A stretch of 64,000 bases of DNA from an uncultured Chloroflexia bacterium (GCA_963707215.1 CAVPPB010000002.1:384001-448000), one strand, 5' to 3'; positions 2,967 through 55,992 are shown, counted from the first letter of the stretch. Program-made: numbers and translations. The notes: a model not told the origin generated them from the letters alone.

Positions 2967-3832
2967 GCGGCTTCCGCTACGAGCGCCCCGGAGACCTGGA
3001 GGCAGCACTCGGGCTCCTGGAACGTCACGGTGACGAAGCGCACCTGCTGGCGGGTGGGACGTCGTTCATGCTCCTGTACCGCCAGGGCCTGATCGACCCG
3101 GAGGTGGTCGTCGACCTGGCCGGCGTCGAGTCCCTTCGTGGCATCCGGCGACTCGATGACGGGTCGGTCGAGGTCGGAGCGCTCTGCAGCCTCCGCGAGA
3201 TCGAGACCGACGAGCTCCTCGGCTCGGCCCTGCCGGTCCTCGCCCGGACGGTGGCCCGGGTCGCCACGATCCGCATCCGCAACCAGGCCACCATCGGCGG
3301 GAACCTCGTCCACGCCGATCCGGCCCAGGACCCGCCACCGGTACTGCTGACCCTCGATGCTTCCGTGGTCGTCCGGGGCCCGACCGGTGAGCGGATCCTG
3401 CCGCTCCATGGGTTCTTCGTCGACGTCTTCGAGACGGTCGTCGAGCCCGGTGAGATCGTCACCGCGATCCGGGTTCCCCTCCCGCCGCCCGGGAGCCGGC
3501 TCGGCTACCGCAAGTTCCTGCCGCGGACCGTGGACGACTACGCCACGGTCAGCGTGGCCGGTCGGCTGGACGTCGATCCCGACGGCACGATCAGCGACGC
3601 CCGCCTGTTCCTCGGGGCGGTCGGACCGACGCCGATCCGGGCGACCGCCGCAGAGGATGCCGTGCGCGGCGCTCGGGTCGCCGACCTCGATCCGGCGATC
3701 GTCGGCCCGCTCGTCATCGGATCCGTCGATCCGGTCGACGACGTTCGCGGTTCGGCTGACTACAAGCGCGAGATGGCGGCGGTCTGGGCGGTCCGGCTGG
3801 TGGGTTCACTGTGCTCGGAGAACCCGGCGTGA
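2963..3832 (+). CDS. FAD-binding medium subunit (CoxM/CutM-like), Mo-hydroxylase #1
   Basis: LAGGTS, IRNQATIGGN, DDVRGSADYK; GTGA overlap with upstream gene. Confidence 0.92.
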   Translation: MSGFRYERPGDLEAALGLLERHGDEAHLLAGGTSFMLLYRQGLIDPEVVVDLAGVESLRGIRRLDDGSVEVGALCSLREIETDELLGSALPVLARTVARVATIRIRNQATIGGNLVHADPAQDPPPVLLTLDASVVVRGPTGERILPLHGFFVDVFETVVEPGEIVTAIRVPLPPPGSRLGYRKFLPRTVDDYATVSVAGRLDVDPDGTISDARLFLGAVGPTPIRATAAEDAVRGARVADLDPAIVGPLVIGSVDPVDDVRGSADYKREMAAVWAVRLVGSLCSENPA

Positions 3833-6126
3833 GCACGTCCCGACCGGCGCCGGATGCCGGGACCCTGGAGGCCCTCCGTCGCCCCGAGGAACGGATCGAG
3901 GGCCGGGCGAAGGTGACCGGCGCGGCGCGCTACGCTGCCGATCGCCTCCCGGCGGGCGCCCTGTGGGCCCGGTTCATGGGCAGCCCGCTGCCCCATGCCC
4001 GCATCCGGTCGATCGACGCGAGCCGCGCCCGGGCCATGCCGGGCGTCCACGCCGTCCTGACCGGCGAGGATCTCCGGGGCATCCGGTTCGGACGCCGACT
4101 GCAGGACCGCCCGCTGCTCGCCTGGGACCGTGTCCTGTTCGTCGGGGACCGGCTGGCCGCGGTCGCGGCGGAAACGCCGGAGCAGGCCGAGGCCGCCCTT
4201 GCCGAGATCGAGGTCGATCTCGAGGAGCTGCCGCCTATCCTCGACCTCCGTGACGCACAGGACGACGACGCCCCGGTACTCCACCCGGAGGCTGCCGAGT
4301 ACCGCTACCTCGACGGTGAGCGGCCCGCGGTGCCGCATCCCAACGTCCAGGGACGCCTGACCGTCGACCGCGGAGCCGAGGACCTCGACGCCGTCTTCGC
4401 CGGCGCGGCGGAGATCCACGAGCATCGCTTCTCAACGCCGCGCCAGCACGCCGCCTACATCGAGCCGCACGCAACGGCGGTCTGGATCGATGGGGACGGG
4501 GTCGTCCACGTCATCACCACGAACAAGGCGCCGTACACCCTCCGCAAGCAGATGGCCGCGGCGCTCGACCTGCCGGCTGACCGGATCATCGTCGACGCCG
4601 AGTACATCGGGGGCGACTTCGGCGGCAAGGGCTACTCGATCGACGAGTACGGTTGCTGGGCCCTGGCCAGGGCGACCGGGCGGCCGGTCCGATCGATCAC
4701 CCGCTACGCCGATGAGCTCGGCGCCCTCAACGTGCGGCACGCCTCGGAGATCCGCCTGCGGACGGCGCTCGATGCCGACGGTCGCCTCCTGGCTCACGAG
4801 GCCGTTGTGATCCTCGACGGCGGAGCGTACGCCTCCGCCAAGCCGCTGCCCCACCTGGCCCTGGCCGGCGCCATCGCCAGCCTGGCCGCGTATCGGGTCC
4901 CGAATGCCCGGATCGACGTCCGGACCGTCTACACGAACACCGTCCCCGGCGGCCACATGCGGACCCCCGGCGAGGTGCAGGCGCTCTTCGCAGGGGAGTC
5001 TCATCTCGACGGGATCGCCCGGGCCCGGGGCGAGGACCCGCTGGCCTTCCGCCTGCGCAATGCGGTCACGACCGGCGACGAGGGTGCCGGCGGCCAGCGC
5101 TTCCGGGAGGCGCGCGCGGTCGAGGTCCTGGAGGCCGTGCGGGATGCGCTGCCCTGGGATCGGCCGCTGCCGCCGGACCACGGCCGAGGCGTCGCCCTGA
5201 GTGCCCGTCACGTCGGTGGCGGGAAGATGCCCCTGGCCCTCGTCCTCTCGGCCGACGGCCGCATCGAGGTCCTGACCGGGCTGGCTGACCAGGGTGGCGG
5301 TGCCTGGACGGTCATCGAGCGCGTGCTGGCCGCCTCGCTATCGCTTGACGAGGCTCGGATCACCGTCCGTCACGTTCCGACCAGCGAGTCACCCTTCGAT
5401 CCCGGGATCGGCGGGAGCCGGGTCACGCACATCGCGAGCCGCTCGGCGGAGCTCCTCGCCGACCAGCTCCGCGAGTGGTTGGACGAGCGTCTTCCGGCGG
5501 CGCTCCCGGGCGCGCGGGATGGGGTCGTCCTGCGCGGTGAGCGCTTCGTCGACCGGACGACGGGCACCACCCTCGCGACCTTCGACGAGGTCGTGGCCCT
5601 GGTCGTCCGTCCCGACGAGCCGGTCCGGCTCTCGGCGACCTACGTGACCGAAGCCCACGGCGAGGACGAGGGCGGCGACTATGACTTCGGGGCGTGCGCG
5701 GTCGTCGTCCACGTGGACCGCGCGACGGGCGAGGTCCGTGTCATCGATGCGCTCCTGGTCGCCGACGTCGGGACGATCATCAACCCGGTCGCGCACCGAG
5801 GGCAGCTGGAGGGTGGGTTCATCTTCGGTCTCGGCGGCGCGCTCATGGAGGAGCTCGTCATGGATGGTGGAGCCGTGACGACCCTCAGCCTCGCCGACAT
5901 GAAGATCCCGTCGATCGGGGACGTGCCGCCCCTCCGCGTGGTGGAGTTGCCGACGACCATCGGGCCAGGGGCGTTCGGCGCCAAGATGGCCGGCGAGCTG
6001 ACCAATGCGCCGGTGGCGCCGGCGATCGCCAATGCCGTTGCCGACGCCATCGGGGTCCGCATCGTCGACCTGCCGATCAGCGCCGAGCGGGTCCACCGGG
6101 CGCTTCGGGAGTCCGGGCGCCACTGA
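3829..6126 (+). CDS. Xanthine dehydrogenase-family molybdopterin-binding large subunit #1
   Basis: KVTGAARYAAD, YIEPH, GGDFGGK, GQLEGG, AKMAGE. Active-site loop is HMRTPG, not CODH AYRCSFR. Confidence 0.92.
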   Translation: MSTSRPAPDAGTLEALRRPEERIEGRAKVTGAARYAADRLPAGALWARFMGSPLPHARIRSIDASRARAMPGVHAVLTGEDLRGIRFGRRLQDRPLLAWDRVLFVGDRLAAVAAETPEQAEAALAEIEVDLEELPPILDLRDAQDDDAPVLHPEAAEYRYLDGERPAVPHPNVQGRLTVDRGAEDLDAVFAGAAEIHEHRFSTPRQHAAYIEPHATAVWIDGDGVVHVITTNKAPYTLRKQMAAALDLPADRIIVDAEYIGGDFGGKGYSIDEYGCWALARATGRPVRSITRYADELGALNVRHASEIRLRTALDADGRLLAHEAVVILDGGAYASAKPLPHLALAGAIASLAAYRVPNARIDVRTVYTNTVPGGHMRTPGEVQALFAGESHLDGIARARGEDPLAFRLRNAVTTGDEGAGGQRFREARAVEVLEAVRDALPWDRPLPPDHGRGVALSARHVGGGKMPLALVLSADGRIEVLTGLADQGGGAWTVIERVLAASLSLDEARITVRHVPTSESPFDPGIGGSRVTHIASRSAELLADQLREWLDERLPAALPGARDGVVLRGERFVDRTTGTTLATFDEVVALVVRPDEPVRLSATYVTEAHGEDEGGDYDFGACAVVVHVDRATGEVRVIDALLVADVGTIINPVAHRGQLEGGFIFGLGGALMEELVMDGGAVTTLSLADMKIPSIGDVPPLRVVELPTTIGPGAFGAKMAGELTNAPVAPAIANAVADAIGVRIVDLPISAERVHRALRESGRH

Positions 6127-43731: not shown

Positions 43732-45177
43732 TCAGCTCCCCCCGATCCCGGCGGTCGACTCGATGCCGGGCAGCGTCCGCGGATCACTGACGACGCCGTG
43801 GACGGCACTCGCCGCGGCCGTCAGCGGCGAGGCCAGGAGCGTTCGCCCGCCCTTGCCCTGGCGGCCCTCGAAGTTGCGGTTGCTGGTGCTGATGGCGTAC
43901 TGCCCGGGCGACAGCTGGTCGCCGTTCATGGCGATGCACATCGAGCAGCCGGCCTCGCGCCACTCCGCACCGGCCGCCCGGAAGACCTCGGCGAGGCCCT
44001 CCAGCTCGGCCTGCTTCTTCACCTCGGTCGAGCCGGGCACGACCATGACCCGGACGCCCTCGGCGACCCGACGCCCGCGGAGGACCTCGGCCGCCAGGCG
44101 GAGGTCGGAGATGCGGCCGTTGGTGCACGAGCCGATGAAGACGACGTCGACCTTCTGCCCCAGGATCGGCTGGCCGGGGCGCAGGTCCATGTACTCGAGG
44201 GAGCGCTCGAGCGCCCGCCGAGCGGCGGCGTCCTCCTGCTCGTCCGGGGAGGGGACCGCGGCGCTGATCGGGATCCCCATGCCGGGGTTCGTGCCGTAGG
44301 TGACCATCGGCTCGAGGGCTGCCGCGTCGATGACGATCGAGCGGTCGAACTCGGCGTCCTCGTCGGTCGGGAGGGCTCGCCACGACTCGATCGCGGCGTC
44401 CCAGGCGGTGCCCTGTGGGGCGTGGGGCCGCCCGGCGATGAACTCGAACGTCGTGTCGTCCGGTGCGACCAGTCCGGCCCGGGCCCCGCCCTCGATGCTC
44501 ATGTTGCAGATCGTCATCCGCTGCTCCATGGTCAGCGCGCGGATGGCCTCGCCGCGGTACTCGAAGACGTGCCCGGTCCCGCCGCCGATGCCGATCCGGG
44601 CGATGAGGGCGAGGATGATGTCCTTGGCGCTTACGCCTGGCTTCAGCCGCCCGTCGACCCGGACCTCGTAGGTCCTCGGCCGGCGCTGCAGCAGGGTCTG
44701 GGTGGCGAGGACCATCTCGACCTCGCTGGTCCCGATGCCGAAGGCCAGCGCCCCGAAGGCGCCGTGCGTGCTGGTGTGACTGTCGCCGCAGACGATCGTC
44801 ATCCCCGGCTGGGTCAGCCCCAGCTCCGGCCCGATGACGTGGACGATGCCCTGGTGAGGGGAGCCCATCCCGTGGAGCGGGATCCCGAACTCACGGCAGT
44901 TGGCCTCGAGCTGGGCGACCTGGGCCGCCGCCATGGTGTCCAGGATCGGCAGGCTGCGGTCGTGGGTCGGGATCGAGTGGTCGGCGGTGGCGACCGTTCG
45001 TTCGGGGTGGCGGACGCGCAGGCCGCGGGCCCGGAGACCGGCAAAGGCCTGGGGGCTGGTGACCTCGTGGACGAGGTGCAGGTCGATCGCCAGGACCGTC
45101 GGTGCACCTGGGTCCTGGGCGACGACATGGTCGTCCCAGATCTTCTCGACGAGGGTTCGCGGTCGGGTGTCGGACAC
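43732..45177 (-). CDS. leuC: 3-isopropylmalate dehydratase large subunit
   Basis: [53 protein letters not shown]. Start GTG 45177. Confidence 0.96.
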
Positions 45178-45387
45178 GGCGGGGCGACTCGCTGCGGTTC
45201 GAAGGAGCCTAGAGGGTAGCAGAGGCGGTCCGAGCGGCAGGTCCCCCGGCTCCGTCCGGCTCCCGGGGGCGGCCCGTCCGGCCCTTGGCCCGCGGCCCGG
45301 GCTGCGCTTGGCTGGAGCCGTAGCAGCCGGCCGTCGCGACGTCCGTGCCGTCGCCGCGCCCCGCGGTCGCTTCCTGGTGGAGCTCCC

Positions 45388-48054
45388 GTGTTCGAGCTGC
45401 TTGGTCGCCTCGTCGTTCGCCTCCGCCTCCCCATCGTCGTCGCCTGGCTGGTCGCTGCCGCGATCCTCTTCTTCGCCCCGTCGCTGCAGGACGTCGGCAC
45501 GGCCGACGAGTCCAGCTTCCTGCCGCGCGACGTCGGATCGGTCGCGGCCCGTGAGCTGCTGGCCAGGGGCTTTCCGGAGGACGACGCGGTCGGCACGGCG
45601 ACCCTGGTCCTCGTCCGCGAGCCCGGCCCCCTGACCGACGCCGATCGTGCCTACCTCGACGAGCTGGCGGCGTGGCTGACCGACCCCGCTTCGGACCCGG
45701 CCCTGGATGGCGCCGTCAAGATGGTCGTGACGGCCGCGACCCGGCCGGAACGCGCGGCGCTCCTGAGGAGCGAGGACGGCACGACCGAGATCGCGACGAT
45801 CGAGCTGACCGTGCCGGCGTTCCAGGAGCGCGCCAACGAGGTGGTCGCGGCGCTGAGAGCGCGGATCGCCGGGACGGCCCCCGACGGCCTGCGCGTCCAC
45901 GTCACCGGTCAGGCCGCCATCGGCGCCGACTACCTCCGGGCCATCGTCGACGGGACCGACCGGACGACGGTCGTGACGATCGCCCTGGTCATCGTCATCC
46001 TGCTGGCGATCTACCGGGCTCCGCTCGCCGCCCTGGTACCGCTCCTGACGATCGGCGCCGCCTTCCTCGTCGCCCGTGGGCTCCTCGGGTGGCTGGCCCA
46101 GGCCGGCTGGTCGCTGAGCACCCTGATCGACTCCTTCGTCGTCGTCCTCGTCTTCGGCGTCGGAACCGACTACACCATCTTCCTCATCAGCCGCTACCGC
46201 GAGGAGCTGGGCCGGGTCGGCGCAGGTTCGCGGGACGCGGCGGGCCGAGGGATCGCCGCCCGGGTGACCGTGACCCGGATCGGTGCCGTGATCACCGCCT
46301 CCGCGGCCACCGTGGTCGTCGGTCTCAGCGCCATGGTCATCGCCCGGTTCGGGATGATCCAGACGACCGGCCCCGCACTGGCCATCGCTATCGTCGTGGC
46401 CCTGGCGGCGGGCCTGACCTTGGCGCCGGCGCTGCTCGTCCTCTTCGGGCCGGCGCTGTTCTGGCCACGTCACCCCAGGCCCGTCGGCCAGGAGACGGGT
46501 GCCGGCGTCTGGGACCGCGTGGCTGCCGGCATCGTCCGTCGGCCGCTGGTCGTCTCCCTGGTCGTCATCGCCGCCATGGCCCTGCCGATCCTGCTCATCC
46601 CCGGCGCCCGGACCGACTTCGACACGCTGGCCGAGCTGCCGGCCGAGTCGGACGCCCGGATGGGCTTCGACGTCGTGGCCGACCACATGGACAAGGGGCG
46701 GCTCATGCCGATCATCGTCGCCATTCGGACGCCGGCGACCGACCTGACCTCGCCCGACGGCCTGACCGCGATCGCGGCCCTCGGCGATCGCCTGGCCGCG
46801 GTAGACGGCGTGGATTCGGTCCGCAGCCTCGTCAGCCCGACCGGTGAGGGCACCCCGGACGAGATGCGGATCTCGCCGCGCCTGCTCGAGCTGGCCGATG
46901 GGCTCGAGCGCCTGGGGGCTGGTCCAGCGGCGGTCCAGCTCGCCCTGGCCGATCCCGGCGCCGTGGCCGGACTGCGCACGGGACTGGGCTGGCTGGAGGC
47001 CAGGGCCGATGACGTGCCCGCGTTCCGTGCGCTGCCCGGGGCCGGCTCGCTCCGTGCCGACCTCGTGACCCTGACCGCCGCGATGGAGCGACTAGCGGCC
47101 GCCGACGACCCGGCGACGGCTGCCGCCCTGGCCGGCGAGGCGTCCCAGGCCGCCGGGCGGGCTGCAGCGGCCCTCCGCTCGGCTGGCGTGGAGCTGGCCG
47201 GCGATCCCCGCCGCGACCTCTACCTCCCCGATGTCTCGGGGGGCGACGCCGGGGAAGAGCTCGACCGCCTCGTCGGCGAGTTCGTCGGTCCGGACGGGTC
47301 GGTCGGGCGGATCTACGTCGTCGCCGCAGACGACCCCTACTCGACGGTCGCCTTCGAGACGGTCGACCGGCTGCGCGACGCCGTGAGCGGGCAGATCGAG
47401 GGTATGCCCGAGGAGACGACCGTGCTGGTCGGCGGCTCGACCGCCGAGTTCACCGACATTCGGACGACGATGGACGGCGACTTCCGCTCGGTGGCCGTGG
47501 TCACGGTCATCGGCGTCCTGCTCGTCCTTGTCGTGCTCCTGCGGAGCCTGGTGGCCCCGATCTTCCTGGTCGCCACGGTCCTGCTGTCCTACGGCACGAC
47601 CCTCCACGTCGCTGGCGGCCTGTTCGAGGGCGTGCTGGGTCATGGCGGCATGAACTACTTCCTGCCCCTGCTCGTCTTCGTCCTCCTGGTCGCCCTCGGC
47701 TCGGACTACAACATCTTCGTGGTCAGCCGCATCCGCGAAGAGAGCGCCCACCGGCCCATCCGCGACGGCATCCGGGTGGGTGCGGCCCGGACCGGCACGG
47801 TCATCACCTCGGCCGGGATCATCCTGGCCGGGACCTTCGCGGCCCTGATGACGGCGCCCCTGGAGCTGCTCTTCCAGGTGGGCGCGGCAGTCGCCCTCGG
47901 CGTCCTGCTCGACACCTTCGTCGTCCGCAGTCTCCTCGTGCCGGCCCTGATCGCGGTCTTCGGGGACCTGTCCTGGTGGCCCTCCGGATGGCATCGCCGG
48001 CGGCTCCCGCGCGGACGTCGTGCCGAGCTCTCGTCGGCGGGCCGGGGCCCCTGA
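45388..48054 (+). CDS. MMPL family (RND) transporter
   Basis: [18 protein letters not shown] and [17 protein letters not shown] repeats; 888 aa. Confidence 0.92.
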
Positions 48055-48125
48055 CGTCGACCCGATCGCTGCCCGGTCGGCTATCCGACCGCGCCCCCCG
48101 ATGGCTCGATGGTGTCCGCCGGCCG

Positions 48126-48139
48126 GTACCCTCGGGCCA
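48126..48139 (+). promoter_or_regulatory. GTACC-N3-GRGCCA box, copy 1 of 3 (others at 48849-48862 and 49334-49347)
   Basis: GTACCctcGGGCCA / GTACCcatGAGCCA / GTACCttcGGGCCA, one upstream of each unit of the locus. Confidence 0.55.
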
Positions 48140-48201
48140 CATCGCCGCTCCCCACCGGCGGTGTACGAACCCCCCGAGCATCCCGGCTCGAAGGAGACAC
48201 C

Positions 48202-48777
48202 GTGTTCATCCTCTATGCGCTCCTGGTCGGGCTCGTCGTCGGAGCGCTGACGGGGGGCCGACCGGCCCGCCTCGGCTCGCTGGAGATCCGCTGGCCATGG
48301 GTCATCGCCGGCGGACTCGCCGCCCAGCTGATCCTCTTCTCCGAGCCCGTGACCCGGGTCGTGGGCGACGCCGGGCCGCCCCTCTACATCCTCTCGACGC
48401 TGGCGGTCCTTGCTGCCGTCAGCGTCAACCGGCGGATCCCGGGCATCCCCCTGGTGATCGCCGGTGCCGTTTCGAACATGACCGCCATCGTCGCCAACGG
48501 CGGGTACATGCCGACCACGCCTGAGGCCCTGGCGGCCCTCGGCAAGCTGCCTCCGGAGACCTACTCGAACAGCTCGGTGCCGATCTCGCCGATGCTCTGG
48601 CCGCTGACCGACATCTTCGCCATGCCGGCCTGGCTGCCCTTCGCCAACGTCTTCAGCATCGGCGACGTGCTGATCGGGCTCGGCATCGCGATCGCCGTGG
48701 TCGCCACGATGCGCCGGCCGGACGCCGATCCGGTGCCGCCCGGGGCGGCGGCCCCTCCGGGGGTCCTCGTCCCCTAG
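48202..48777 (+). CDS. DUF5317-family membrane protein; putative LspA-like aspartic peptidase
   Basis: RBS AAGGAG then GTG 48202; GG.P.RL..L..RW, N..ANGGYMP, LTDIF, VFSIGDVLI. Family recognised by motif; peptidase role is inference. Confidence 0.75.
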   Translation: MFILYALLVGLVVGALTGGRPARLGSLEIRWPWVIAGGLAAQLILFSEPVTRVVGDAGPPLYILSTLAVLAAVSVNRRIPGIPLVIAGAVSNMTAIVANGGYMPTTPEALAALGKLPPETYSNSSVPISPMLWPLTDIFAMPAWLPFANVFSIGDVLIGLGIAIAVVATMRRPDADPVPPGAAAPPGVLVP

Positions 48778-48930
48778 GGGCACCGACCGACCCTCCCTCG
48801 AGCGGTCGTGGCGCCCCGGTGCACCGGCGAATCGGATCGGGCCCCCCGGTACCCATGAGCCAGTGGCCGCGATCCGGCCGTCACGTAGCGGTCGCCCCCG
48901 AGGGCGACGTCCGCCTTCCGCCGCAAGGCC

Positions 48931-49011
48931 GTCCAGGGCAAACCCGTCGCGAGGCGGGGACGCAAAGCCAGGGATCTTCAAGGACCAACGAAGACCGCCC
49001 GGTTGCCGGAC
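48931..49011 (+). promoter_or_regulatory. Cyclic di-GMP-I (GEMM) riboswitch
   Basis: GTCC-AGGGCAAACCCGTC-GCGA-GGCGGGGACGCAAAGCC...GGTTGCC-GGAC shows GEMM core motifs, a GNRA-capped P2, P3 TCTTC/GAAGA and P1 GTCC/GGAC. Confidence 0.9.
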
Positions 49012-49048
49012 CTACGGTGAGGTCTCGGGGAACGAGAGGTACAGACAC

Positions 49049-49138
49049 GTGAAGGCGAACCTGGCGCGCTTCACCACGGCCGTCGCGCTCCTGGCGTCGA
49101 TGGCCCTCACCCTTGGCGCGGGGATGCGCTGGTGGTAG
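49049..49138 (+). CDS. 29-aa signal-peptide-like micro-protein MKANLARFTTAVALLASMALTLGAGMRWW
   Basis: RBS GAGAGG about 9 nt before GTG; directly under the riboswitch; n-region/h-region layout. Confidence 0.7.
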   Translation: MKANLARFTTAVALLASMALTLGAGMRWW

Positions 49139-49170
49139 CTCCCTAGACGGGAACGACAAGGGAGACGACC

Positions 49171-49245
49171 ATGGACACGCTGAACATCCCCCTCGAGGAT
49201 CGGGTGCCGGCCGTTGGTCCGATGGCCGGTCATCGGTGGAGCTGA
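49171..49245 (+). CDS. 24-aa micro-protein MDTLNIPLEDRVPAVGPMAGHRWS
   Basis: RBS AAGGGAG 6 nt before ATG; C-terminus AGHRWS mirrors AGMRWW of the upstream peptide; absent from the ORF track. Confidence 0.55.
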   Translation: MDTLNIPLEDRVPAVGPMAGHRWS

Positions 49246-49278
49246 TCGCGACGACCGGTCGCGGCGGCCCGCATCGAG

Positions 49279-49307
49279 CGACCGCCGGGCGTCATGCCCG
49301 GCGGTCG
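49279..49307 (+). terminator. Hairpin closing the riboswitch-peptide transcript
   Basis: CGACCGCCGGGC-gtcat-GCCCGGCGGTCG (12-bp perfect stem, no U-tract). Confidence 0.55.
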
Positions 49308-49430
49308 AGCGATTCAGGGGCTGGGACCGGTCCGTACCTTCGGGCCAGTCTCCCGGGGCTCGCTGCGGGCTAGTCTCGAGCCCTCCGGGGCGGTCCGGAC
49401 GACCTGCCCCGAGCCTGCCGTACCAAGGGA

Positions 49431-52001
49431 GTGCCTGTGACCCCGAACCGGGTCATCCGAGCGCGCGCGATCGGGCTGTCCGTCGTCCTGGCTCGCCGCC
49501 CCAGGCTCGAGCCGTCGCAACGCGTCTGGCTGCTGACCATCGGCCTGGCCGTAGCGGCGACGCTCGTGCTCGCGCTGTCCGGCGGCTTCCTGTCCGGACG
49601 GGCGACGTCGGCGATCCCCTGGCCGCTCATCGCCCTGGGGATGTACCTGGCCGAGGTCAAGGTCGTCGTCGTCCACTTCCGTCGCGAGAGCCACTCCTTC
49701 TCGCTGAGCGAGATCCCGGCCGTCATCGGACTCTTCCTCCTGAGCCCCATGGACTACGTGCTGGCGGCGACGATCGGACCGACCCTGGCCTTCGTCTACC
49801 CGGCCCGTCAGCCCTTCATCAAGGCGGCCTTCAACGCCGTCAACTACCTTCTCATCGCCTCGGTCTCGCTGGTCACCTTCCAGATCCTGGCGCCCGGCGG
49901 CGTCGTCGGCCAGCCGGGCGCCCAGGCCTGGCTGGCGGCCTTCGTGGCGATGCTCGTCTCCACGGTCATCAGCAGCCTGACCATCGCCTCGGTCATCACC
50001 CTGTCGGGCGGGGCGCCGCAGTTCCAGAAGATGCCGGAGATGCTCCAGTTCGGCGGTCTCGTGGCGCTCGCCAACACCAGCATCGGTCTCCTTGCCCTCG
50101 CGGTCGTCAGCGTCGACCCGGCCGGCATCTGGCTCCTGATCGTGCCCATCGCCGCGGTCTTCCTTGCCTACCGGGCCTACGTCTCGGAGCGTGAGAAGAA
50201 GGAACGCCTGGAGCTGCTCTACCAGTCGAGCCGCATCCTCCAGCACACGCCCGAGCTCGACGCGGCGCTGATCGCCTTGCTCGACCACGCCCGCGACATG
50301 TTCCGGTCCGAGCGGGTCGACTGCCGTCTCGTGCCGGCGGCCGGGGGGCCCGTCCTGCTGACCCGCTCGCTGCTCGATGTCGAGCCGATCGTCATGGAGG
50401 CCCAGCCCGAGGGTCCGGACGACGAGCTCTCGGCCGTGCTCCAGCAGCGGAGCGACGCCTTCATCTACCGGCCGGAGGCACCGGGCTCCGGGATCCGCCA
50501 GGCGATGGTCGCTCCGCTGGCCGGCGAGGACCGGCCGATCGGCCACCTCATCGTCGCCAACCGGCTGGGGGAGGCCTCCTCCTACGGGGTCGACGACCTT
50601 CGCCTCCTCGAGACGCTCGCCGGGCAGGTGGCCGTCGCCCTCCAGAACGGCCAGCTGGAGCAGTCACTCACGGAGCTGTCCCGGCTGAAGGACGAGCTCC
50701 GTCACCAGGCCTATCACGACTCCCTGACAAGGCTGGGCAACCGGGTCCTCTTCGCCGAGGCCGTCGAACAGAGTCTGGCCGTGGCCTCGGACCTGGAGAC
50801 CGTCGTCCTGTTCCTGGACCTCGACGACTTCAAGATGGTCAACGACACGATGGGTCATGCCGTCGGGGACCGGCTCCTGGGCGTCGTCGCCGAGCGCATC
50901 TCCCGGAGCGTCCGCGAGACCGATGTGGCGGCCCGCCTGGGTGGCGACGAGTTCGCGGTCCTGGTCCACGACCAGCCCGATCTCCGGGTCGCACTGGCCC
51001 TGGCCGGTCGGCTCCGCGAGGAGCTCCATCGTCCCGTCCGCCTGGGTGGCAGCGAGACGGTGGTCGACGTCAGCATCGGGATCGCCGCCGCCTCGAAGGG
51101 CGTCGGCGCCGACGAGCTGCTCCGCAACGCGGACATCGCGATGTACAAGGCCAAGACCGATGGCAAGGGCCGGGTGGCGCTCTTCGACCCGACGATCCAT
51201 GCCGCCATCGTCGCCCGCCATGCCCTCGGGACGGACCTGACCCGGGGGCTCCTGCAGAACCAGTTCGAGCTCTACTACCAGCCGATCGTCGTGCTCGGGA
51301 CGGGATCGATCTCGGGCTACGAGGCGCTGCTGCGCTGGCATCACCCGCAGCGCGGTCTGATCACCCCCGACGACTTCATCCGGGTGGCCGAGGAGACGGG
51401 CTCCATCGTCGACATCGGGGCCTGGGTCCTCCGGGAGGCCTGTGGGCAGGCCACGGCCTGGTCGGCCCTGCCCGGCATGGACGATCGGCTCTCGATCAGC
51501 GTCAACGTCTCGCCGCGCCAGCTCCAGGACCCGGAGTTCGTGGACCTTGTCCTGGGAGTGCTCCGCGAGACCAGCCTTCCGCCCGAGCGGCTCGTCCTCG
51601 AAGTGACCGAGACGGCGATGTTCCAGGACCCGGTCACCGTCGGCGCGAAGCTCGAGGCGCTCCGCGAGGTGGGTGTGCGGGTCGCCCTGGACGACTTCGG
51701 CACCGGCTATGCATCGCTCAGCCATCTCCGCCGGTTCCCGGTCGACATCCTCAAGATCGCCCGCGACTTCGTCGTCGACGCCGACGCCGAAGACGACGCC
51801 TGGGCCTTCGCGGCGGCGATCGTCGCACTGGCCCGGACCCTCCAGCTCCAGGTCGTGGCGGAGGGCATCGAGCAGTCGCGCCAGGTCGAGCGGCTGCGCG
51901 GCCTCGGGTGCCAGCTGGGCCAGGGCTACTTCCTCGCCCGCCCCGCTCCGGCGGCGGTCATCGATGCTTCCATCGGCGCCGTCGGCTCGGCGACGGCCTG
52001 A
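49431..52001 (+). CDS. Membrane (~7 TM) sensor - GAF - GGDEF - EAL diguanylate cyclase/phosphodiesterase
   Basis: Hydrophobic N-terminal ~245 aa; GAF-like segment; HDSLTRLGNR, RETD I-site, RLGGDEF, EALLRW, DDFGTGY, AEGIE. Confidence 0.93.
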   Translation: MPVTPNRVIRARAIGLSVVLARRPRLEPSQRVWLLTIGLAVAATLVLALSGGFLSGRATSAIPWPLIALGMYLAEVKVVVVHFRRESHSFSLSEIPAVIGLFLLSPMDYVLAATIGPTLAFVYPARQPFIKAAFNAVNYLLIASVSLVTFQILAPGGVVGQPGAQAWLAAFVAMLVSTVISSLTIASVITLSGGAPQFQKMPEMLQFGGLVALANTSIGLLALAVVSVDPAGIWLLIVPIAAVFLAYRAYVSEREKKERLELLYQSSRILQHTPELDAALIALLDHARDMFRSERVDCRLVPAAGGPVLLTRSLLDVEPIVMEAQPEGPDDELSAVLQQRSDAFIYRPEAPGSGIRQAMVAPLAGEDRPIGHLIVANRLGEASSYGVDDLRLLETLAGQVAVALQNGQLEQSLTELSRLKDELRHQAYHDSLTRLGNRVLFAEAVEQSLAVASDLETVVLFLDLDDFKMVNDTMGHAVGDRLLGVVAERISRSVRETDVAARLGGDEFAVLVHDQPDLRVALALAGRLREELHRPVRLGGSETVVDVSIGIAAASKGVGADELLRNADIAMYKAKTDGKGRVALFDPTIHAAIVARHALGTDLTRGLLQNQFELYYQPIVVLGTGSISGYEALLRWHHPQRGLITPDDFIRVAEETGSIVDIGAWVLREACGQATAWSALPGMDDRLSISVNVSPRQLQDPEFVDLVLGVLRETSLPPERLVLEVTETAMFQDPVTVGAKLEALREVGVRVALDDFGTGYASLSHLRRFPVDILKIARDFVVDADAEDDAWAFAAAIVALARTLQLQVVAEGIEQSRQVERLRGLGCQLGQGYFLARPAPAAVIDASIGAVGSATA

Positions 52002-52326: not shown

Positions 52327-52354
52327 GACCCTCGCCGGGAGGCGAGGGTCTTTT
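52327..52354 (+). terminator. Attenuator terminator upstream of ilvB
   Basis: GACCCTCGCC-ggga-GGCGAGGGTC-TTTT. Confidence 0.85.
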
Positions 52355-52442
52355 GCATGCCGGGAGACGGCGCCGAACGGCTCGGCGGGTCGACCGGGAC
52401 GGGGCGGGGCCCCGGAGCGGATCGAGAGGGCGGGTGATCACG

Positions 52443-54326
52443 ATGACGAAGGGCGAAGGAGCGGCAAGTCCGGCGCCGCCGGATGCCCCGTCGACGGCGA
52501 CCGGCGGCGAGCGCCGCAGCCACGTCCCAGCGGCCGGGACGGCCCATGCGGCGGCGGTCGAGAAGGCCCAGCGCGACATGCTCCACGAGGCTGCTCCCCG
52601 GAAACGGACCCGGATCGGCGCGGACGTCGTCTGCGAGGCCCTGATCGGCCAGGGCGTCGACGTCTTCTTCAGCTACCCGGGCGGCGTCATCCTGCCCCTC
52701 TACGACGTCCTCGGCGACTACCCGGAACTCCGCCACGTCCTCGTCCGTCACGAGCAGGGCGGCGCCCACGCCGCCGACGGCTACGCCCGGGCCACCGGCA
52801 GGGTCGGCGTCTGCATGGGCACATCGGGCCCCGGCGCCACCAACCTGGTCACCGGCCTGGCCACGGCGATGCTCGACTCGGTGCCGATGGTCGCCATCAC
52901 CGGCAACGTGCCGGGGGCCCTCATCGGCAAGGACGCCTTCCAGGAGATCGACATCACCGGCATCACCCTGCCGATGACGAAGCACAACTACCTGGTCCGC
53001 GACGCGGAGGACCTGCCGCGCGTCCTCGCCGAGGCCTTCCACATCGCCCGCACCGGCCGACCCGGCCCGGTCCACGTCGACATCACCAAGGACGCCCTCC
53101 AGCAGGAGACGGCGGCTCCGCACCCGACGATCGAGGAGGTCAAGGCGGGCCTGCCCGGCTTCCGGCCGACCTTCGACGGCCATCCCCGCCAGATCAAGGT
53201 GGCGGCCCGGGAGGTCGCCTCGGCCCGCCGGCCGGTCATCCTGGCCGGTCACGGCATCCTGATCGCCGGGGCCGAGGCCGAGCTCCTCGAGCTGGCCGAG
53301 AAGGCCCGCATCCCGATCACCTGGACCCTCCTGGGGATCGGCGCCGTGGACGAGACCCACCCGCTCGCCTACGGCTACATGGGCATGCACGGCTGGAAGC
53401 ACGTCAACCGCGCCATCCAGTCGGCCGACCTGCTCATCGCCCTGGGGATGCGCTTCGACGACCGGGTGACCGGCAACGTCAAGACGTACGCCCCGCACGC
53501 CAGGATCATCCATGTCGATCTCGACCCCTCCGAGATCGGCAAGAACGTGGCCGTCGAGGTCCCCATCGTCGGCGACGTCAAGCGCGTCCTGAAGGCCATG
53601 ATCCCGATGATCGACGAGGTCGATCCCGCCGAGCGCGAGGCCTACCTGGCCGAGCTGGCCGAGTGGCGTGAGGAGTCCGAGGGCACCAGCTGGCACGGCT
53701 CGGGCGCCTGGCGCGACGGCTACCTCTCGGCCGACTACGTGATCGAGCGACTCGGTGAGCTGACCGACCATGACGCGACGTACGTCGCCGACGTCGGCCA
53801 GCACCAGATGTGGCTGGCTCGCTACTGCGGCTTCCGGCGGCCCGGCTCGCACCTCTCGTCGGGCGGCCTCGGGACGATGGGCTACAGCATGCCGGCGGCG
53901 ATGGGCGCAGCCCTGGGCCGACCGGACAAGGAGACCTGGGCCATCTGTGGCGACGGGGGCTTCCAGATGACCCTCCAGGAGCTGGCCACCCTGGTCCAGG
54001 ACGACATCCCGGTGAAGATCGCCCTGATGGACAACAAGAAGCTCGGGATGATCCGCCAGTGGCAGGAGATCGTCTACGCGGGCAACTATCACTCGTCGAA
54101 CATGCTGGGGCCCGACTACCTCAAGCTGGCCGACGCCTACGGCATCCCGGGCTTCAAGGCCTCGACGCCCGAGGAGGTCGACCCGGCCATCCGGGCCGCC
54201 CAGGCGGCCGACGGCCCGGCGCTCGTCTGGTTCGAGACCGCCGAGTCGCAGAACGTCTACCCGATGATGCCGGCCGGCAAGGGCCTCTCCGACCTCATCG
54301 AGAAGTGGAACGAGCCCGAGGAATGA
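52443..54326 (+). CDS. ilvB: Acetolactate synthase large subunit
   Basis: YPGG, RHEQG, TSGPGATN, DAFQE, GMHG, RFDDRVTG, DVGQHQMW, GDGGFQM. Confidence 0.96.
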   Translation: MTKGEGAASPAPPDAPSTATGGERRSHVPAAGTAHAAAVEKAQRDMLHEAAPRKRTRIGADVVCEALIGQGVDVFFSYPGGVILPLYDVLGDYPELRHVLVRHEQGGAHAADGYARATGRVGVCMGTSGPGATNLVTGLATAMLDSVPMVAITGNVPGALIGKDAFQEIDITGITLPMTKHNYLVRDAEDLPRVLAEAFHIARTGRPGPVHVDITKDALQQETAAPHPTIEEVKAGLPGFRPTFDGHPRQIKVAAREVASARRPVILAGHGILIAGAEAELLELAEKARIPITWTLLGIGAVDETHPLAYGYMGMHGWKHVNRAIQSADLLIALGMRFDDRVTGNVKTYAPHARIIHVDLDPSEIGKNVAVEVPIVGDVKRVLKAMIPMIDEVDPAEREAYLAELAEWREESEGTSWHGSGAWRDGYLSADYVIERLGELTDHDATYVADVGQHQMWLARYCGFRRPGSHLSSGGLGTMGYSMPAAMGAALGRPDKETWAICGDGGFQMTLQELATLVQDDIPVKIALMDNKKLGMIRQWQEIVYAGNYHSSNMLGPDYLKLADAYGIPGFKASTPEEVDPAIRAAQAADGPALVWFETAESQNVYPMMPAGKGLSDLIEKWNEPEE

Positions 54327-54942
54327 GCGGACGATCCGGCGGCGATCCCGCCACCACCGCATCCGGCCCGACCGCCGCGCCGACCCCGGCGCCGGCCCAC
54401 AGCGCGCCGCCCTCGCGGGCCGTCCCCGGCACGGGCGAGCACCACCGCCACGTCCTGGTGACCGTGGTCATGAACCGGCCCGGCGTCCTGAACCGCGTCG
54501 CCTCGCTGATGCGGGCCCGCAACTTCAACATCGAGTCGCTGGCGGTGAACCACACCGATGATCCCGAGATCAGCCGGATGACGATCACCCTCTACGGCGA
54601 CGACGTGGCCGTAGAGCAGGCGACCAAGCAGCTCTACCGGCTCATCGACGTGCTCAAGGTCCAGGACGTCACCAGCGACCCGACCGTCGAGCACGAGCTG
54701 GCGCTCGTCAAGGTCCGGGCCACCGACCGGGCCCGGGCCGAGGTCCTCAAGGTCGTCGAGCTCTCGAAGGGCCGGGTCGTGGACCTCTCGCCGGACTCGG
54801 TCATCGTCGAGGTGACCGGAACGGAAGCCGAGGTGGACGCGGCCATCGCGCTCCTCCGCGGCTTCGGCATCAAGGAGCTCATCCGGACCGGGACCGTGGT
54901 CATGTCGCGGGGCTCGGGATCCATCGAGGAGGCGATCAAGCG

Positions 54943-54946
<4 letters not shown>
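54323..54946 (+). CDS. ilvN: Acetolactate synthase small (regulatory) subunit
   Basis: [32 protein letters not shown]; ATGA overlap. Confidence 0.94.

Positions 54947-55991
<1,045 letters not shown>

Positions 55992-55992
<1 letters not shown>

Follow-up and report, generated by a model that had tools for sequence, protein, structure and literature searches.

A conserved c-di-GMP module of Limnocylindria-type Chloroflexota with DUF5317, riboswitch-led micropeptides and a membrane GGDEF-EAL enzyme, as predicted from sequence

A stretch of 64,000 nucleotides (nt) from an uncultured Chloroflexia bacterium (GCA_963707215.1 CAVPPB010000002.1:384001-448000), hereafter the window, carries at positions 48126-52001 a gene for a DUF5317 membrane protein, a riboswitch aptamer of the c-di-GMP-I type (c-di-GMP, cyclic diguanosine monophosphate), two micro open reading frames (ORF1 and ORF2) and a gene for a membrane GAF-GGDEF-EAL enzyme. 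Judged from sequence and from recurrence in related genomes, these parts are one conserved c-di-GMP signalling module of Limnocylindria-type Chloroflexota. A first-pass annotation of the same DNA had placed the four parts here in one orientation, and Pfam, Rfam and a reading of the ORFs agree with it, all four lying on the plus strand. How the parts might work together is proposed more tentatively: membrane micropeptides under riboswitch control may act with DUF5317 on the sensor domain of the enzyme, a reading that we hold to be possible, if somewhat short of probable.

Linkage of the parts across genomes

The linkage was assessed in an unbiased sample, built from a search with DUF5317 only that returned 556 relatives, of which the best 80 loci were taken with 1.5-kb flanks. 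An adjacent micro-ORF on the same strand, ending in [AGS][AGP]x[RK]W, is present at 60 of these best 80 loci (57 downstream, 3 upstream) as against 1/80 on the reverse strand, and at least three further loci have a variant tail, AGAWMRW, that falls outside the pattern. An aptamer occurs at 55/80, and all 60 aptamer matches lie on the DUF5317 strand. A GGDEF-EAL orthologue is found on the same strand within 1.5 kb at 45/80 (42 directly upstream, 3 downstream); inspection by eye adds a divergent enzyme gene at locus L318 and one directly downstream at L334, which the script had missed. The enzyme accompanies 45 of the 55 riboswitch loci and none of the 25 riboswitch-less ones (one if L334 is counted), a comparison for which a p-value overstates the case, as the related genomes are non-independent. 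This co-occurrence of riboswitch and GGDEF-EAL gene fits a c-di-GMP feedback loop of the kind that the first-pass annotation had envisaged.

ORF1 itself gives a second view of the locus. Its first 25 nt were used as the pattern for a scan of one genome per species, which returned at least 119 stretches; among the matches listed, 84 loci hold 88 true ORF1 copies, and the other 35, which are C-termini of acyl-CoA-synthetase-like genes, were dropped. All 88 listed copies have an aptamer ending 29-42 nt upstream, while five extra aptamers in these loci stand before ORF1 copies that have diverged, a sixth being located at a locus end. At 67 of the 84 loci DUF5317 is on the same strand and has its end 197-461 nt upstream; at 8 it lies elsewhere in the locus, and at 9 it was not seen, ORF1 being within 900 nt of the locus edge in 8 of the latter. 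The commonest order is enzyme, DUF5317, riboswitch, peptides, and the order of the window recurs in about 10 ORF1 loci; a linkage that survives such rearrangement speaks for a common function. The aptamer spacing and the counts of micro-ORF, riboswitch and enzyme at the 80 DUF5317 loci thus bear out the earlier suggestion of a single conserved module.

Paralogous loci that have no riboswitch are instructive as to the core of the system. A one-helix micro-ORF lies downstream (ending LEAG[RK]RW) or upstream (ending GAPxRW) of DUF5317 in 16 of 23 such family-level loci, including one in this genome. The latter, at C2:342915-343469 (L153:3910-4470, minus strand; in the C2 numbering, window 48927-49010 is 432927-433010), encodes a DUF5317 protein that is 55% identical to that of the window and is followed by a one-helix micro-ORF ending LEAGRRWF. 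Since riboswitch-less paralogues keep the peptide, DUF5317 and the peptide would be the core pair, and the riboswitch-led form the one tied to the enzyme.

Outside this lineage DUF5317 was followed into an actinomycete-class sample, where it occurs in 58 of 121 genomes (54 of 117 without four unpublished ones). The motif micro-ORF was found at 0 of 28 actinomycete DUF5317 loci from published genomes (reverse-strand control, 1), and a looser screen for any hydrophobic small ORF with a tryptophan-containing tail gave 0 of 23 actinomycete loci. An HD-GYP, GGDEF or EAL gene lies within 1.5 kb of DUF5317 at 20 of 28 actinomycete and 50 of 80 Chloroflexota-type loci, compared with 0 of 25 equally large control loci around LspA. 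As c-di-GMP enzymes adjoin DUF5317 in two phyla, DUF5317 would be their general companion and the peptide a lineage-specific addition; peptide processing cannot then be what the family does in general, because actinomycete DUF5317 comes without the peptide. Long open frames around actinomycete DUF5317 were considered as fusions and set aside: six of the seven scanned contain no further domain and one a weak DUF3352 match, and they are stop-free frames in GC-rich DNA.

Riboswitch, micropeptides and their transcript

The aptamer (48928-49011, plus strand) is the one element of the 64-kb window that exceeds an Rfam gathering score. It passes the model of the GGC variant, RF03167 (c-di-GMP-I-GGC; 65.6 bits, gathering score 59), as well as RF01051 (c-di-GMP-I, clan CL00126; 59.6 bits, gathering score 35), the latter at C2:432927-433010, or 48927-49010 of the window. 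For the related loci, a covariance model was made from seven aptamers and used on the ORF1 loci, and 94 related aptamers were aligned. In the motif GACGC-N-AAGCC, of which N is presumably the position that names the GGC variant, N is G in the RF03167 consensus and A in the window and in 94/94 related aptamers; in the relative L005 the aptamer in the same context is called plain c-di-GMP-I. On this comparison of sequences the ligand is fairly likely to be c-di-GMP.

Between aptamer and ORF1 lies a linker or expression platform (49012-49048, plus strand) with possible alternative hairpins and a Shine-Dalgarno-like GAGAGG at 49034-49039. Folds of single sequences suggest alternative hairpins around this site, from which no ON/OFF rule is derivable across loci, and the fold of 48925-49085 is no more stable than its shuffles (z -0.37). 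The start codon and first codons of ORF1 are able to form a hairpin. The sequence variants give no ground for claiming selection on that hairpin: of 24 distinct ones, that of L106 looks compensatory, and several (L274, L285, L234 and L242) weaken the stem without compensation. A scan with the aptamer core across many phyla returned 117 aptamers, of which only 10 precede a motif micro-ORF, so aptamers of this type do not serve the peptide alone.

Several other genes were seen behind such aptamers. This genome has a second aptamer of the same type outside the window (C2:474223-474311; L001:1501-1589, minus strand; RF03167, 67.6 bits), directly preceding a different ORF, with MSYWDGTHWERED as its beginning and a single hydrophobic stretch; an ORF resembling this one lies behind the L209 aptamer. 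At L181, L182, L210 and L256, in genomes labelled Chloroflexia, another family of small hydrophobic ORFs (about 30 residues, ...HAV..LGVVL.VLLAA....H-stop) lies behind c-di-GMP-I aptamers. Aptamers with the same core precede prepilin-like genes (..GFTLIELL..) at L201, L224, L229, L236, L244, L267, L276, L279 and L287, in records labelled Solirubrobacterales or actinomycete, and at L201 and L224 the whole unit of aptamer and prepilin-like gene is repeated in tandem.

ORF1 (29 residues; 49049-49138, plus strand) begins with GTG 37 nt 3' of the aptamer end, has GAGAGG 9 nt upstream and ends in KANLARFTTAVALLASMALTLGAGMRWW. ORF2 (24 residues; 49171-49245, plus strand) has GGGAG 6 nt upstream and reads MDTLNIPLEDRVPAVGPMAGHRWS, with the tail AGHRWS. 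The two frames are thus readable in the sequence as first described, each with a ribosome-binding site and each ending A-G-x-R-W-x-stop. Neither peptide falls in a Pfam or NCBIfam family. ORF1 has a positive N-terminus, one hydrophobic helix (best 17-residue Kyte-Doolittle window 1.75) and the tail LGAGMRWW; ORF2 of the window is hydrophilic.

Conservation of the micro-ORFs beside DUF5317 in other genomes had been named in the first-pass annotation as a test of its proposal. They are kept there, and ORF1 shows a codon-position signature of selection. The first eight codons of the scanned set are fixed by the search pattern; at the invariant residues A19, G23, A24 and G25 the third codon positions have 0.96-1.82 bits of entropy and positions 1 and 2 have 0-0.22 bits (86 sequences), and variable third positions at invariant residues argue for selection on ORF1 at the protein level. 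In samples anchored on the aptamer, the N-termini of ORF1 vary (MKATLARF, VKQNLARF, MKARLARL, VKDKLTRI and others), and the hydrophobic stretch and LGAG-x-[RK]-W are kept. The tail G-A-G-x-[R/K]-W is nearly invariant, and the residues that follow W vary from 0 to 8 in number, with one case of 18. This pattern does not favour the release of a short signal such as GMRWW, as had been suggested, for conservation centres on GAG-x-[RK]-W, which is predicted to lie at the edge of the membrane, and what follows W is variable.

Of 86 cases that could be tested, 66 have an ORF2 with a G-x-[RK]-W end behind ORF1; it mostly either overlaps the stop codon of ORF1 or begins no more than 6 nt from it. G-x-[RK]-W is the conserved core common to both peptides. 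ORF2 ends in G-[HQRL]-R-W plus 0-2 residues. Its body may be an ORF1-like second one-helix peptide, may be hydrophilic as in the window, or may amount to just nine residues; the tail is the kept part. Tandem arrays of two or three units of riboswitch and ORF1 (with or without ORF2), about 500-600 nt apart behind one DUF5317, were seen at L075, L076, L096, L106, L108, L123, L340, L365 and L367.

The box GTACCNNNGNGCCA, which had been reported upstream of each of the three units, is matched three times in the window (48126, 48849 and 49334), once per unit and always on the plus strand, where 0.02 matches are expected and none of 100 shuffles reaches three. Copy 1 (GTACCCTCGGGCCA, 48126-48139) lies 63 nt 5' of the DUF5317 start codon, copy 2 (GTACCCATGAGCCA, 48849-48862) 66 nt 5' of the aptamer and copy 3 (GTACCTTCGGGCCA, 49334-49347) 84 nt 5' of the GGDEF-EAL start codon. 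Across the 3.26-Mb assembly the box has 15 matches and a reversed-pattern control 19; a fourth copy, among these 15, at C2:342832-342845 (minus strand), lies between the paralogous DUF5317 gene and its own micro-ORF. In relatives an element G[GT][TG]AC[CT]...GG.[CT]CAT[GT]G is kept 60-75 nt 5' of the aptamer, with a second conserved block about 24 nt further up. We read this conserved element upstream of the aptamer, which includes box copy 2, as a putative shared promoter or regulator site.

Downstream of ORF2 a perfect hairpin of 12 base pairs (49279-49307, plus strand) is terminator-like, without a U tract, and the region 49240-49330 folds at -60.1 kcal/mol (z -4.34), a stability equalled by 0 of 200 shuffles. 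As the hairpin lies between ORF2 and the third box, riboswitch and micro-ORFs would form a separate unit. Short RNA contigs covering the aptamer and ORF1 only were found in two metatranscriptome runs from different studies, as presence in an RNA library and not as proof of transcription: one (48914-49068) has 0 differences, and the other (48911-49177) has seven differences and one gap, for which reason it is assigned to a relative. The two begin within 3 nt of each other, about 15 nt 5' of the aptamer and about 50 nt 3' of box copy 2, and this common start at 48911-48914 is a weak hint of a 5' end. No RNA contig was found for the DUF5317 and GGDEF-EAL parts of 48100-49500, which, with contigs, proves nothing.

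DUF5317 and the membrane enzyme

The DUF5317 gene (48202-48777, plus strand) encodes 191 residues that match PF17248 at 96.7 bits (cut-off 25) over profile positions 2-150 of 151. Its start was set at GTG 48202, and not in the longer frame from ATG 48109, because 49 homologues begin with MF[IL]LY there. The AlphaFold2 model (predicted local distance difference test, pLDDT, 91.5) has five membrane helices and a conserved loop of residues 99-152, and N92, N99, D137, N149, S152, G154 and D155 are invariant across 50 DUF5317 sequences. From the positive-inside rule we infer that the loop, with D137 and D155, faces outward, like the tail of an ORF1 peptide that has its N-terminus inside.

Is DUF5317 a peptidase, as the first-pass annotation supposed? 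Searched with the DUF5317 profile, the PDB sequences yielded 0 matches at E values up to 10; Foldseek with the model found no match in the PDB (best E 3.2), and hhalign of the alignment of 50 sequences with 19 LspA sequences from related genomes returned a probability of 1.3%. LspA (peptidase A8) is likewise a small polytopic membrane protein, with two conserved Asp near the outer edge, about 18 residues apart; on the side of difference, the host has an ordinary LspA of its own and the peptides have no lipobox cysteine. In VIA-align the top match of the model is a designed bundle (Z 6.5), and LspA chains within the top ten have the highest identities there: 5dir_A (Z 5.3, root-mean-square deviation (rmsd) 3.0 over 92 residues, 17% identity) and 6ryp_A (Z 5.1, rmsd 4.2 over 97 residues, 20% identity), a Z of about 5 lying within helical-bundle noise by the tool's own account. 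Given the negative profile comparison and the noise-level Z, the peptidase role remains a guess. A likeness of DUF5317 and LspA motifs seen by eye was not used as evidence. In the ESM Atlas, DUF5317 finds clusters of DUF5317 alone.

DUF5317 also occurs as an N-terminal fusion to exporters of the major facilitator superfamily (MFS), in 113 of 120 longer relatives among the matches listed. This genome has one DUF5317-MFS_3/MFS_1 fusion (684 residues) directly downstream of an HD-GYP (HD_5) gene (L152:793-2844 and 2994-3899, both minus strand; C2 at about 16.3-19.4 kb).

A co-fold of the peptide with DUF5317, which had been proposed as a check, was run with ORF1. Its score, 0.37, stands above the best of three controls at 0.01, with a partner pLDDT of at least 59 and agreement between runs in at least 69% of contacts. 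Among 80 solved complexes 58 reach the mark used, as do 2 of 110 mismatched pairs; passing scores of 0.60 or less belong to 7 of those 80 and to both passing mismatches, and the calibration set holds proteins of 30 residues and more. The model thus lends weak support to a contact between DUF5317 and ORF1.

The GAF-GGDEF-EAL gene (49431-52001, plus strand) encodes 856 residues in which Pfam finds a GAF domain (50211-50648), a GGDEF domain (PF00990, 144.2 bits; 50709-51170) and an EAL domain (PF00563, 240.9 bits; 51234-51944), all on the plus strand, and no kinase domain. The GGDEF letters are present with an RxxD site (RETD) five residues before them, as are the EAL, DDFGTG and EGIE letters of the EAL domain; one stretch of the latter reads KIA, where we take KID to be usual. 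By its domains and active-site letters the protein is a predicted diguanylate cyclase and phosphodiesterase. AlphaFold2 gives residues 1-265 six to seven membrane helices (pLDDT 84.2), so that the earlier description of an enzyme with some seven transmembrane segments and its catalytic motifs holds.

The membrane sensor domain (residues ~28-232; 49512-50126, plus strand) has a fold like that of the S components of energy-coupling factor (ECF) transporters. Compared by VIA-align with 48,161 chains, its top 15 matches are all ECF S components (Z 14.8-10.0), the next unrelated chain having Z 7.9; the best is TmRibU (5kbw_A; Z 14.8, rmsd 3.1, 163 of 170 residues). The domain thus superposes on almost the full length of the S components (RibU, ThiT, FolT, BioY, CbiM, PanT and BtuM), and differs from them in being fused to signalling domains instead of forming part of a transporter. 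The small ligands of S components are bound from the outer side of the cell, which makes a pocket for a small molecule or side chain plausible here, and the modelled fold suggests a sensor domain with a ligand pocket. A sensory role for the transmembrane domain, as first proposed, accords with a fold known for small-ligand binding.

Sequence families say less about this domain. Pfam finds nothing above cut-off in it; the S-component family PF12822 matches 1 of 17 members (E 0.46), and the window's own domain matches 0 families. MASE9 (PF20972) matches 3 of the 17 at E 0.046 or worse, below cut-off, and does not match the window's domain. The nearest ESM Atlas clusters score 0.91 and have MASE9 on 32%, 11% and 18% of their members, so the domain is possibly a distant MASE9, as a lead only. 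MASE9 itself is described as a membrane domain that serves HD-GYP and GGDEF-EAL proteins as a sensor, has an intramembrane hairpin and is suspected of binding a ligand inside the membrane (bioRxiv 10.1101/2021.11.05.467447).

Proposed mechanism, alternatives and known systems

How might these parts act on one another? In the reading that we tentatively favour, the c-di-GMP-I-type riboswitch would control a short transcript coding for one or two micropeptides. ORF1 would insert with its N-terminus inside the cell, which would bring the G-x-[R/K]-W tail to the outer edge of the membrane; there the tail would meet the acidic outer loop of DUF5317 (D137, D155), the pocket of the sensor domain, or both. 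The amount of peptide would tune the balance of the enzyme between c-di-GMP synthesis and breakdown, and c-di-GMP would feed back on peptide synthesis through the riboswitch, closing the loop. The peptide would be a membrane-embedded partner or tethered ligand and not a diffusible pheromone, and DUF5317, as a general partner of c-di-GMP enzymes, may dock, hold, cut or remove it.

A number of points weigh against this. Translation of ORF1, its insertion, its binding and its effect on c-di-GMP are all steps that we infer; the RNA contigs attest to presence in RNA libraries and not to transcription; the weak co-fold pass comes without an interface; and it is the model of the GGC variant, of less certain ligand, that gives the aptamer its highest score. 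Of the 80 DUF5317 loci 20 lack a motif micro-ORF, at least three of these having the variant tail, and 10 of the 55 riboswitch loci have no enzyme within 1.5 kb. The hydrophilic and nine-residue forms of ORF2 keep GHRW yet cannot insert to reach a site at the outer face, which does not follow from this reading.

The peptides might instead be subunits or regulators of DUF5317 alone, in some membrane task of its own such as transport, the enzyme being a mere co-regulated neighbour with no feedback from the peptide. The pairing of DUF5317 and micro-ORF in paralogous loci without riboswitch or enzyme, the fusions of DUF5317 to MFS transporters and a co-fold pass that concerns DUF5317 and the peptide only would all suit this; it is nonetheless rather unlikely, since the enzyme goes with the riboswitch form (45/55) and not with the riboswitch-less one (0/25) and c-di-GMP enzymes adjoin DUF5317 in another phylum too (20/28). 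An agr-like loop, in which DUF5317 is an intramembrane aspartyl peptidase that cuts after A-G, the S-component-like pocket of the enzyme senses the released x-[R/K]-W from outside and the riboswitch supplies the feedback, is unlikely. It would make sense of D137 and D155, both invariant and predicted to lie at the membrane's outer edge, of LspA in the VIA-align top ten with the highest identities (Z 5.3 and 5.1), and of D155, which by our own arithmetic on the aligned ranges would map on or beside the second catalytic Asp of LspA. The common DUF5317-MFS fusions recall peptidase-exporter fusions, the same tail on helical and hydrophilic peptides would suit a recognition or cleavage site, and S components bind small aromatic ligands. 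The hhalign probability of 1.3%, the lack of any PDB sequence or Foldseek match and a Z of about 5, within helical-bundle noise, speak against the peptidase, and actinomycete DUF5317 loci have no such peptide (0/28 and 0/23). Moreover, the part after W, which would carry specificity, varies from 0 to 8 residues and x-[RK]-W is near constant across species, the opposite of usual pheromones. More doubtful still is the fullest form of this idea, namely that DUF5317 founds a family of its own among intramembrane aspartyl peptidases, with a geometry like that of LspA, and clips membrane-anchored precursors after G-A-G, and that the S-component-fold pocket reads x-[R/K]-W outside, in an autocrine or quorum loop with c-di-GMP output and riboswitch feedback.

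Very improbable, in our judgement, is that the peptides are membrane-active toxins or bacteriocin-like, with DUF5317 as immunity protein or exporter. They are small, cationic and hydrophobic with tryptophan-rich tails, a polytopic membrane protein adjoins them, and tandem copies occur at L075, L076, L108 and L123, but they are uniformly hydrophobic and not amphipathic, are tightly associated with a c-di-GMP enzyme and a riboswitch, and form a single chromosomal unit in about 80 species-level genomes, with no mobile-element context in the loci read. That the micro-ORFs are non-functional, as leader peptides or chance frames in structured RNA, is barely credible. The hairpin potential of the start and first codons points that way, as does the near invariance of the first 25 nt in many copies, of a set selected by that very pattern; coding is indicated by the third-position pattern at invariant residues, by N-termini that diverge in the aptamer-anchored samples while helix and tail are kept, and by the riboswitch-less paralogues, which retain the peptide. 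A leader would also have nothing downstream to regulate in the commonest gene order, and a hairpin stands behind ORF2.

Among known systems, agr (AgrD/AgrB/AgrC) consists of a small peptide gene, a polytopic membrane protein and a membrane receptor, with an output that acts back on peptide synthesis. The module resembles it in that a peptide gene has genes for a polytopic membrane protein and for a membrane receptor as neighbours, and would resemble it in an output that acts back on peptide synthesis. It differs in that DUF5317 belongs to PF17248 only and to no AgrB family, the receptor is a c-di-GMP enzyme and not a histidine kinase, the feedback would run through a riboswitch, and the core of the peptide is conserved and not diversified; the module, which has neither an AgrB-family protein nor a kinase, is no agr system. 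MgrB, which acts on PhoQ, is a small membrane-protein regulator of a sensor. The reading that we favour would parallel it in a one-helix peptide that is induced by its own pathway, acts on a membrane sensor and closes a feedback; here, however, induction would be by riboswitch and not transcriptional, the target would be a GGDEF-EAL enzyme, and DUF5317 would be a third partner.

The architecture had been thought to lack any precedent, which can no longer be said of all its parts. A recent account describes the CD1980.2 family of Clostridioides difficile, in which class I c-di-GMP riboswitches precede small membrane-associated proteins of 58 residues (PMC13724677, Nat Commun 2026). The window, too, has a class I c-di-GMP aptamer with a small hydrophobic ORF immediately 3' of it. 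By description, the two have in common such a riboswitch directly before a very small membrane-associated protein, genes that annotation missed, some riboswitch-less paralogues and a lack of known molecular partners; the proteins differ in length (58 against 29 residues) and come from unrelated lineages (PMC13724677). The account reports no homologues outside C. difficile, and describes the switches there as OFF switches acting by termination (PMC13724677). As described there, the CD1980.2 copies are scattered and feed into sporulation, whereas here the peptide gene is locked to DUF5317 and GGDEF-EAL and has the invariant G-x-[RK]-W (PMC13724677). Proof of processing and of external sensing would be needed before the present architecture could count as new in category.

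A full-text literature search, outside subscription journals and supplements, found nothing on DUF5317 or on this peptide family, nothing linking S components with diguanylate cyclase sensor domains, and nothing on genes of c-di-GMP-I-GGC or on riboswitches in Limnocylindr-. The module would thereby offer a first functional context for DUF5317 (PF17248), and its 29-residue membrane peptide family would join the few known riboswitch-controlled small proteins. An S-component fold in the sensor of a c-di-GMP enzyme would make the long-open ligand question of MASE-type domains directly testable. In the proposed loop a second messenger would control, through RNA, a peptide acting on the enzyme that makes and breaks it. 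The parts, all of them small, lend themselves to reconstruction in a laboratory host.

The assembly (3.26 Mb, 5 contigs) is 84.8% complete, and the window DNA is GC-rich. Related loci in public records are labelled mostly Candidatus Limnocylindrales, Chloroflexota or uncultured Chloroflexia, and the host probably belongs to this Limnocylindrales/Chloroflexota lineage. A below-threshold match to the animal miRNA family mir-598 within the GGDEF-EAL gene (49601-49676, plus strand; 26.6 bits against 69) was rejected as chance in GC-rich repetitive codons. Upstream of the module Pfam identifies a gene for an MMPL transporter (45388-48054, plus strand). A leuC-like gene (43732-45200, minus strand) and, downstream, ilvB/ilvN/ilvC-like genes (52353-55992, plus strand) were judged from their translations, and no tie of any of these neighbours to the module was seen.

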